DNA from: a virus
Taxonomy: Duplodnaviria > Heunggongvirae > Uroviricota > Caudoviricetes
Strand: one strand, 5' to 3'
Length of the DNA stretch: 64,000 bases
Virus record (IMG/VR): IMGVR_UViG_2721755651_000007
The notes below the pieces were generated by a model that was given only the letters and a program-made list of their open reading frames with translations, searched no databases and was not told where the DNA came from. The translations under genes were made by a program, and so were the position numbers. Shown here one piece after another: positions 55,467-56,330 of the stretch; the first letter of the stretch is position 1, and each line of letters starts with the position of its first letter.

Positions 55467-55680
55467 CCCGCAGAATCAGGCTTATTCCCTTAACCTGGGC
55501 TTTCATCCTGACCGCCGCCTCACTACGACCAATCAGACTGCCGATGCATTTTACCTTCATTGTTAGTATCATGATTTCAGGCCTGCACCATCCGCTCATT
55601 GCCCGGACTTCCGACAAATCCCGGCAACCATATCCCGGTGCTTGTTCAGCTCCCGCAGCGCGGCGCAGACTCGCTCCCAC
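55435..55680 (-). pseudogene. truncated homolog of the HTH-like gene disrupted in prophage A
   Basis: matches 8309..8701 protein over about 50 aa then ends. Confidence 0.45.
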
Positions 55681-56330
55681 TTCTGGACATGATTCTTCGC
55701 CCTACGCAGTTCGCGATTTGCCATATGCAGCGATGGCAAAATCAAATCATCTTCTCGCGTTGCAGTAAACGATGGCAGCGACTGCACAATGTCCGCCACA
55801 GTTTCTGTTTTAATATCTTCCTGTGTTGCATCTTTCTGTACCGGTAACGCAACACCGGCTGGCTGAGGAAAGGCTTTACCATCGGTTTCCGCTACCGATT
55901 CAACTTTCGGCTCTGCTGGTAAATTATCACCTGGTATGCAGTAACGAATTTTACCGTTCTGGTTTACGCGAATCAGACGACCTTTGCTGATTGCCATTGC
56001 CAGCGTTGAAGCAACTTTGCGGGATGTTGTACCGAACAGCGTAGCCAGTTCATCCGCCGTTTGTGGTCCGCGTTGTTCAATCGTCGCGGTTAAATCGCAC
56101 TCTGAGATTTTCGCTTCTGTTGCCGTGGTGGTTTCTTCTGGCGCTGGCTGTTCCTGCTGAACGTTGTTATCAGCCACACGCCAGGTGTATACGCTTTTAT
56201 CAACGAAGCCAGCCTTTTTCAGTTCCCACAGCTCGTTCAGTACTTCTTCACGACTGATATCAAGTCGCGCAGCCAGCTATACCGACGTGGCTTTTCCCAT
56301 CGCTTTCAGTGCGTCAAAAACAGTCTCCAT
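55596..56330 (-). pseudogene. winged-helix-like phage gene with in-frame amber stop at codon 18
   Basis: ATG with [27 protein letters not shown], then same frame continues into ORF 55596..56177. Confidence 0.55.

Follow-up and report, generated by a model that had tools for sequence, protein, structure and literature searches.

An amber codon at position 18 of a DUF1627/YdaW-family gene in the Sp9-type prophage beside ompW of Escherichia coli O157:H7

The window, a stretch of 64,000 nucleotides, is E. coli O157:H7 sequence that is collinear with strain 319. It carries two prophages, referred to here as A and B. Prophage A is Sp11, and prophage B is an Sp9-type element that lies beside ompW. 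Each encodes a protein of the DUF1627/YdaW family, and the copy in prophage B, which is the subject of this analysis, sits between a replication protein P gene and a small ORF (Table 1).

Compared with the prophages of strain Sakai, the window opens with Sp11 (1-16742), followed by the right end of Sp12 (16739-22287, 99.96% identical). Past 22287-22300 the identity to Sp12 falls to about 97%, and Sp9-type sequence extends to ompW (22288-64000). As in strain 319, a recombination event between the homologous late regions of Sp9 and Sp12 seems to underlie this order. An IS1203/IS629-type element (7047-8357) is located just downstream of copy A and interrupts the next small gene; the matching element in Sakai is instead found at the Sp11/Sp12 border. 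Its frameshift pseudoknot (Rfam ALIL) was detected at 7906-8022. The other Rfam matches above the gathering score are STnc100 and AgvB small RNAs beside prophage tRNAs, DicF, and two sok antitoxin RNAs beside hok genes (48402-48671, 13952-14003, 5255-5429 and 53640-53789). No Rfam RNA family overlaps the DUF1627 gene.

The small ORF downstream of the DUF1627 gene is probably translationally coupled to it; the start codon of the one overlaps the stop codon of the other. This ORF looks truncated where a segment with a fimbrial pseudogene and paa starts, and its counterpart after copy A (8309-8701) is longer. The paa/adfO adhesin gene itself (AcfC family; 53978-54736, minus strand) adjoins the frameshifted fimbrial pseudogene and is found about 0.9 kb downstream of the DUF1627 gene.

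Read directly from the minus strand, the gene begins with an ATG (first base 56330), continues through 17 sense codons to an in-frame TAG (56279-56277) and then stays open to a TGA at 55598-55596. A reading made earlier from the letters and their ORFs (hereafter the sequence-only reading) had described the ATG, the GGAGG Shine-Dalgarno sequence, the 17 sense codons and the TAG just as they are found. It had also stated that copy A has a sense codon at this position, and the aligned codon is indeed GTA (Val). Its figure of 193 codons after the TAG needs amending to 226; the lower number counts the codons of the listed ORF that begins at GTG codon 52 (56177). The DUF1627 family is matched on both sides of the TAG, by the 17 residues before it and the 226 after it. 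Since the DUF1627 and PHROG 630 matches flank the amber codon in this way, it is no chance stop. The stop codon in this DUF1627/YdaW-family gene is real.

Table 1. Features of the DUF1627/YdaW-family gene of prophage B, its neighbours and its paralogue in prophage A (window coordinates).
Feature	Position	Strand	Remarks
Replication protein P gene, upstream	56364..56825	-	DUF1627 gene begins 33 bases after it; position of lambda ren
Shine-Dalgarno sequence GGAGG	56338..56342	-	Six bases 5' of the ATG; read from the sequence
Native ATG of the DUF1627/YdaW-family gene	56328..56330	-	109 of the 120 relatives listed begin METVF
Winged helix 1, residues 1-52	56175..56330	-	AlphaFold2 prediction: H4-11, E13-15, H16-23, H27-40, E43-46, E49-52; pLDDT ~90
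Amber codon 18 (TAG)	56277..56279	-	Derived base is the coding-strand T at 56279; ancestral GAG (Glu18)
Remainder of the frame, 226 sense codons + TGA	55596..56276	-	Matches the intact O55:H7 allele at 100%
GTG codon 52	56175..56177	-	First canonical in-frame start past the amber; 193-aa ORF (Sakai ECs_5720); no Shine-Dalgarno sequence
Winged helix 2, residues 77-131	55938..56102	-	AlphaFold2 prediction: H77-87, H92-99, H103-115, E120-124, E127-131; pLDDT ~86
Pfam DUF1627 (PF07789) match	55623..56081	-	Residues 84-236, E=7.8e-93
Long C-terminal helix, residues 201-243	55602..55730	-	AlphaFold2 prediction; most conserved part common to copies A and B
54-aa ORF, downstream	55435..55599	-	ATG overlaps the DUF1627 TGA (ATGA); phrog_30109
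Copy A, intact 238-aa paralogue (Sakai ECs_2204), Sp11-type prophage	8611..9327	-	63% protein identity; Val at column 18

If the amber codon is treated as an amino acid, the protein scores 308.8 bits against Pfam DUF1627 (PF07789), whose cut-off is 28.1 (E=7.8e-93), and the match spans profile positions 1-153 of 155. PHROG 630, a family that carries no known function, is matched over residues 1-242 (E=6.7e-123). The helix-turn-helix matches of the first ~50 residues are just sub-threshold (Pfam HTH_20, 24.6 bits vs a cut-off of 27), and the second putative winged helix has weak Pfam matches to FeoC and TrmB.

An AlphaFold2 model of the full-length protein, built on 37 family members, predicts two winged-helix units with pLDDT values of about 85-93. 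Both are modelled as helix-strand-helix-helix units with a beta-hairpin wing, and they are followed by a linker predicted to be disordered (residues 136-198) and the long C-terminal helix. Foldseek matches the model to the tandem winged-helix proteins ScpB, ESCRT-II and SelB as well as to MarR/ArsR/FeoC-type regulators. A sequence-based search of solved structures returned only MntR (E=0.51). AlphaFold2 and Foldseek agree in supporting the winged-helix likeness that had been suggested from the translation, which the Pfam helix-turn-helix matches just fail to reach. In the model, the amber codon falls within the second helix (residues 16-23) of winged helix 1, and GTG52 encodes the final residue of the wing of this unit.

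Members of the DUF1627/YdaW family occur in lambdoid and Rac-type prophages. Those of Rac, the PPompW prophages and Stx phages share the length and the METVF start of the window's gene and are also encoded directly after replication genes. The window's allele is collinear with the family architecture of a METVF-started N-terminal winged helix followed by DUF1627, and is interrupted by the TAG at codon 18. It differs from these family members in carrying E18*, so that normal translation of this allele cannot yield the full-length protein. The gene takes the operon position that ren has after P in phage lambda, and winged helix 2 weakly matches the PHROG "Ren-like exclusion protein" (E=0.0015 and 0.0083). 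Homology to lambda Ren was considered and rejected: a direct profile comparison gave an hhalign probability of 0.4% (E=0.14) and so did not confirm the weak PHROG matches.

The only functional lead in the literature comes from ydaW of the E. coli K-12 Rac fragment, which an overexpression screen identified as able to block the retron-Sen2 toxin RcaT (bioRxiv 10.1101/2020.06.22.160242). A literature search for "DUF1627" returned just a passing mention of a gene near the PasA/PasC small RNAs, and a search by the locus tags ECs1770, ECs_5720, Z2050 and Z2051 returned nothing relevant.

The ancestral state of codon 18 is evident from the O55:H7 strain DEC5A. This strain carries the same ompW prophage with the same neighbouring protein accessions, and its orthologue is an intact 244-aa CDS (WP_000450692.1) that differs from the window's gene solely at codon 18. 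Over 1681 bases the window and DEC5A show one difference, TAG vs GAG at this codon, and about 11 differences are found in the surrounding 9 kb. Compared with the intact orthologue found at this locus in DEC5A, the change is disabling and amounts to a single base, as expected of a pseudogene. Elsewhere, codon 18 is GAG in O111:H8, in H19 and in strain 214-4, and GAA (also Glu) in the Rac prophage of K-12. Of 111 close relatives, 110 have E18, and the full-length architecture is the norm among them. The records of PPompW prophages in the phage collection likewise encode the intact E18 protein, at 100% identity.

The sampled O157 genomes share the TAG allele. An 81-mer containing the TAG matches 298 complete-genome records exactly; in the 51 of these that were sampled, every serotype named is O157, and those with no serotype given have genomes of an O157-like size (5.3-5.8 Mb). 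Strain 493/89, which we take to be the sorbitol-fermenting O157:H- reference strain, is included. The corresponding GAG 81-mer matches 316 records exactly, from O145, O111, ETEC and others; 11 of them were sampled, and no O157 label occurs among these. Both truncated protein forms annotated from the TAG allele are each found on at least ~1000 contigs. The sequence-only reading had offered a fresh nonsense mutation as one of two explanations and had suggested comparing alleles across strains. That comparison, which gives TAG in the sampled O157 genomes and GAG in O55:H7 DEC5A, upholds the nonsense mutation, with GAG as the ancestral codon and one base in 1681 separating the two. It does not uphold "fresh", given that the allele is common to the sampled O157:H7 genomes and is also present in strain 493/89. 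The TAG allele is one G-to-T change away from Glu18, is shared across the sampled O157 genomes and is not new.

Downstream of the amber codon, the 226 codons are 100% identical among the sampled O157 genomes and contain no further lesion. Amino-acid variants of the truncated forms are rare (V235G and Q244K). Since no O157 copy differs from another or from O55:H7 after the amber, there are no substitutions to count, and the intact frame argues neither for nor against selection; the clone is too young and too uniform. Two further rare forms are seen in public assemblies. One is a 231-aa variant that starts with MAARL and is longer than the 226-aa form, and the other is a 197-aa variant from the GTG with a four-residue insertion. 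Their features suggest recombinant or independently damaged alleles.

Prophage B shows other signs of decay. PGAP annotates pseudogenes for its portal, tail L, tail J, fimbrial and nleG genes. Published work describes defects of Sp9 in head, portal and recombination functions, yet it still excises, and its packaging is possible with the help of other prophages (PMC2669165). The lesion in the DUF1627 gene fits this general decay. A frameshift in the upstream DnaT-like replication gene of strain 493/89 adds to the decay of the same prophage in that sublineage. Family members have also been inactivated in other resident prophages by different lesions: ydaW of the K-12 Rac prophage is truncated at its 3' end and the family member of strain H19 is frameshifted, whereas the gene in the window has an early nonsense codon.

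Several alternatives to a simple loss of function were considered. An error of sequencing or assembly in a single genome can be dismissed. The sequence-only reading had allowed that resequencing might reveal a sense codon here, but the same 81-mer with the TAG is present in all 298 of the independently sequenced complete-genome records, and the protein forms derived from it recur on at least ~1000 contigs each. Translation could also restart after the UAG, at GTG52 to give 193 aa or at CTG19 to give 226 aa, and yield a product without winged helix 1 whose function is normal or altered. Restarts of this kind have precedents in E. coli lacI and T4 rIIB, and here too an early amber codon precedes an in-frame GTG from which a protein shortened at its N-terminus could arise. 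No ATG, GTG or TTG stands in frame between codons 19 and 51, which leaves GTG52 as the first canonical start after the stop. In the model this codon marks exactly where winged helix 1 ends, so that a restarted chain would neatly comprise winged helix 2 and the C-terminal helix. None of the sampled O157 genomes has a break in the downstream frame, and annotators call both shorter forms as CDSs. These calls, however, are mechanical ORF extensions and no sign of expression. Unlike the lacI and rIIB sites, GTG52 has no Shine-Dalgarno sequence and lies 99 nt downstream of the stop. The predicted duplex with the 3' end of 16S rRNA has an energy of -0.9 kcal/mol at GTG52 and -3.1 kcal/mol at CTG19, compared with -10.3 kcal/mol at the native ATG; neither of the two internal codons has a Shine-Dalgarno site by this measure, and E. 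coli initiates very poorly at CTG. Neither codon serves as the start in any intact relative. Partial sequences and amber-derived forms aside, relatives begin at or upstream of the METVF-type start, and in them position 52 is an ordinary valine codon. The reliance on re-initiation at this GTG that had been proposed from the sequence is therefore at odds with its weak duplex, its distance from the stop and its use as valine in relatives. Occasional restart at GTG52 is possible, but we consider it unlikely that a restarted product accounts for the allele. A separate, shorter transcript was also considered and rejected: no promoter-like site was found on the minus strand, the coding strand of the gene, within 55000-57200. 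Terminator-like matches in the same interval are no commoner than in shuffled sequence.

Read-through of the amber codon, either by a near-cognate tRNA at UAG-C or by a suppressor tRNA encoded elsewhere in the genome, would make the allele a low-expression variant and not a null. A UAG followed by C is a relatively weak stop in E. coli at which some read-through may occur, and a regulatory protein may be needed in small amounts only. Against this, the background rate of read-through in wild-type E. coli generally stays well under 1%, and the four tRNAs of the window (Arg-tct and Ile/Met-cat only) include no suppressor. Nor is the stop conserved, since 110 of 111 relatives encode Glu here and copy A encodes Val, so this is no programmed recoding site. 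We regard read-through as a very improbable basis for the function of this allele. A similarly remote idea is that a GTG52-restart product made at a low level, lacking winged helix 1 but retaining winged helix 2 and the highly conserved C-terminal helix, pairs with intact DUF1627 paralogues of other O157 prophages, such as copy A in Sp11, and alters their activity. If true, the allele would be no null, and this would amount to cross-talk between prophages, retained across the sampled O157 genomes.

We favor an ordinary loss-of-function nonsense mutation, with a probability of roughly 0.85. The allele would accordingly be a pseudogene or a severe hypomorph of an accessory gene in a decaying prophage. 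In the DUF1627/YdaW-family gene of this Sp9-type prophage beside ompW, a single G-to-T transversion turned the GAG of Glu18 into the amber codon TAG, presumably once the O157 lineage and the sampled O55:H7 strain DEC5A had diverged. Ribosomes that initiate at the strong GGAGG/ATG site stop after 17 residues, within helix 2 of winged helix 1. Given this early termination at codon 18, the full-length protein with its two winged helices, linker and C-terminal helix is probably not made at normal levels. Any product of the remaining 226 codons would arise only through inefficient read-through or restart, with no dedicated mechanism. The allele may then have been carried along as the O157 lineage expanded, its loss of function being presumably neutral.

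This one lesion has given rise to two different CDS annotations. PGAP places a 226-aa CDS at the CTG directly after the TAG (56276; WP_077744273.1), and the Sakai RefSeq record has a 193-aa CDS from GTG52 (ECs_5720). Neither carries a pseudogene flag, which would be more accurate than a 226-aa or a 193-aa protein. The change from Glu18 to an amber codon is also a clean lineage marker, by which the sampled O157:H7 genomes can be told apart from the O55:H7 genome that was sampled. Little of this is new: Pfam already lists the family, and RefSeq already includes the truncated forms. We conclude that the gene is one further case of decay in the defective prophages of O157 and matters little in itself. 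If the DUF1627/YdaW family proves to have an anti-defence role, to which the retron-blocker lead points, the loss of the Sp9 copy in O157 could be mildly interesting.
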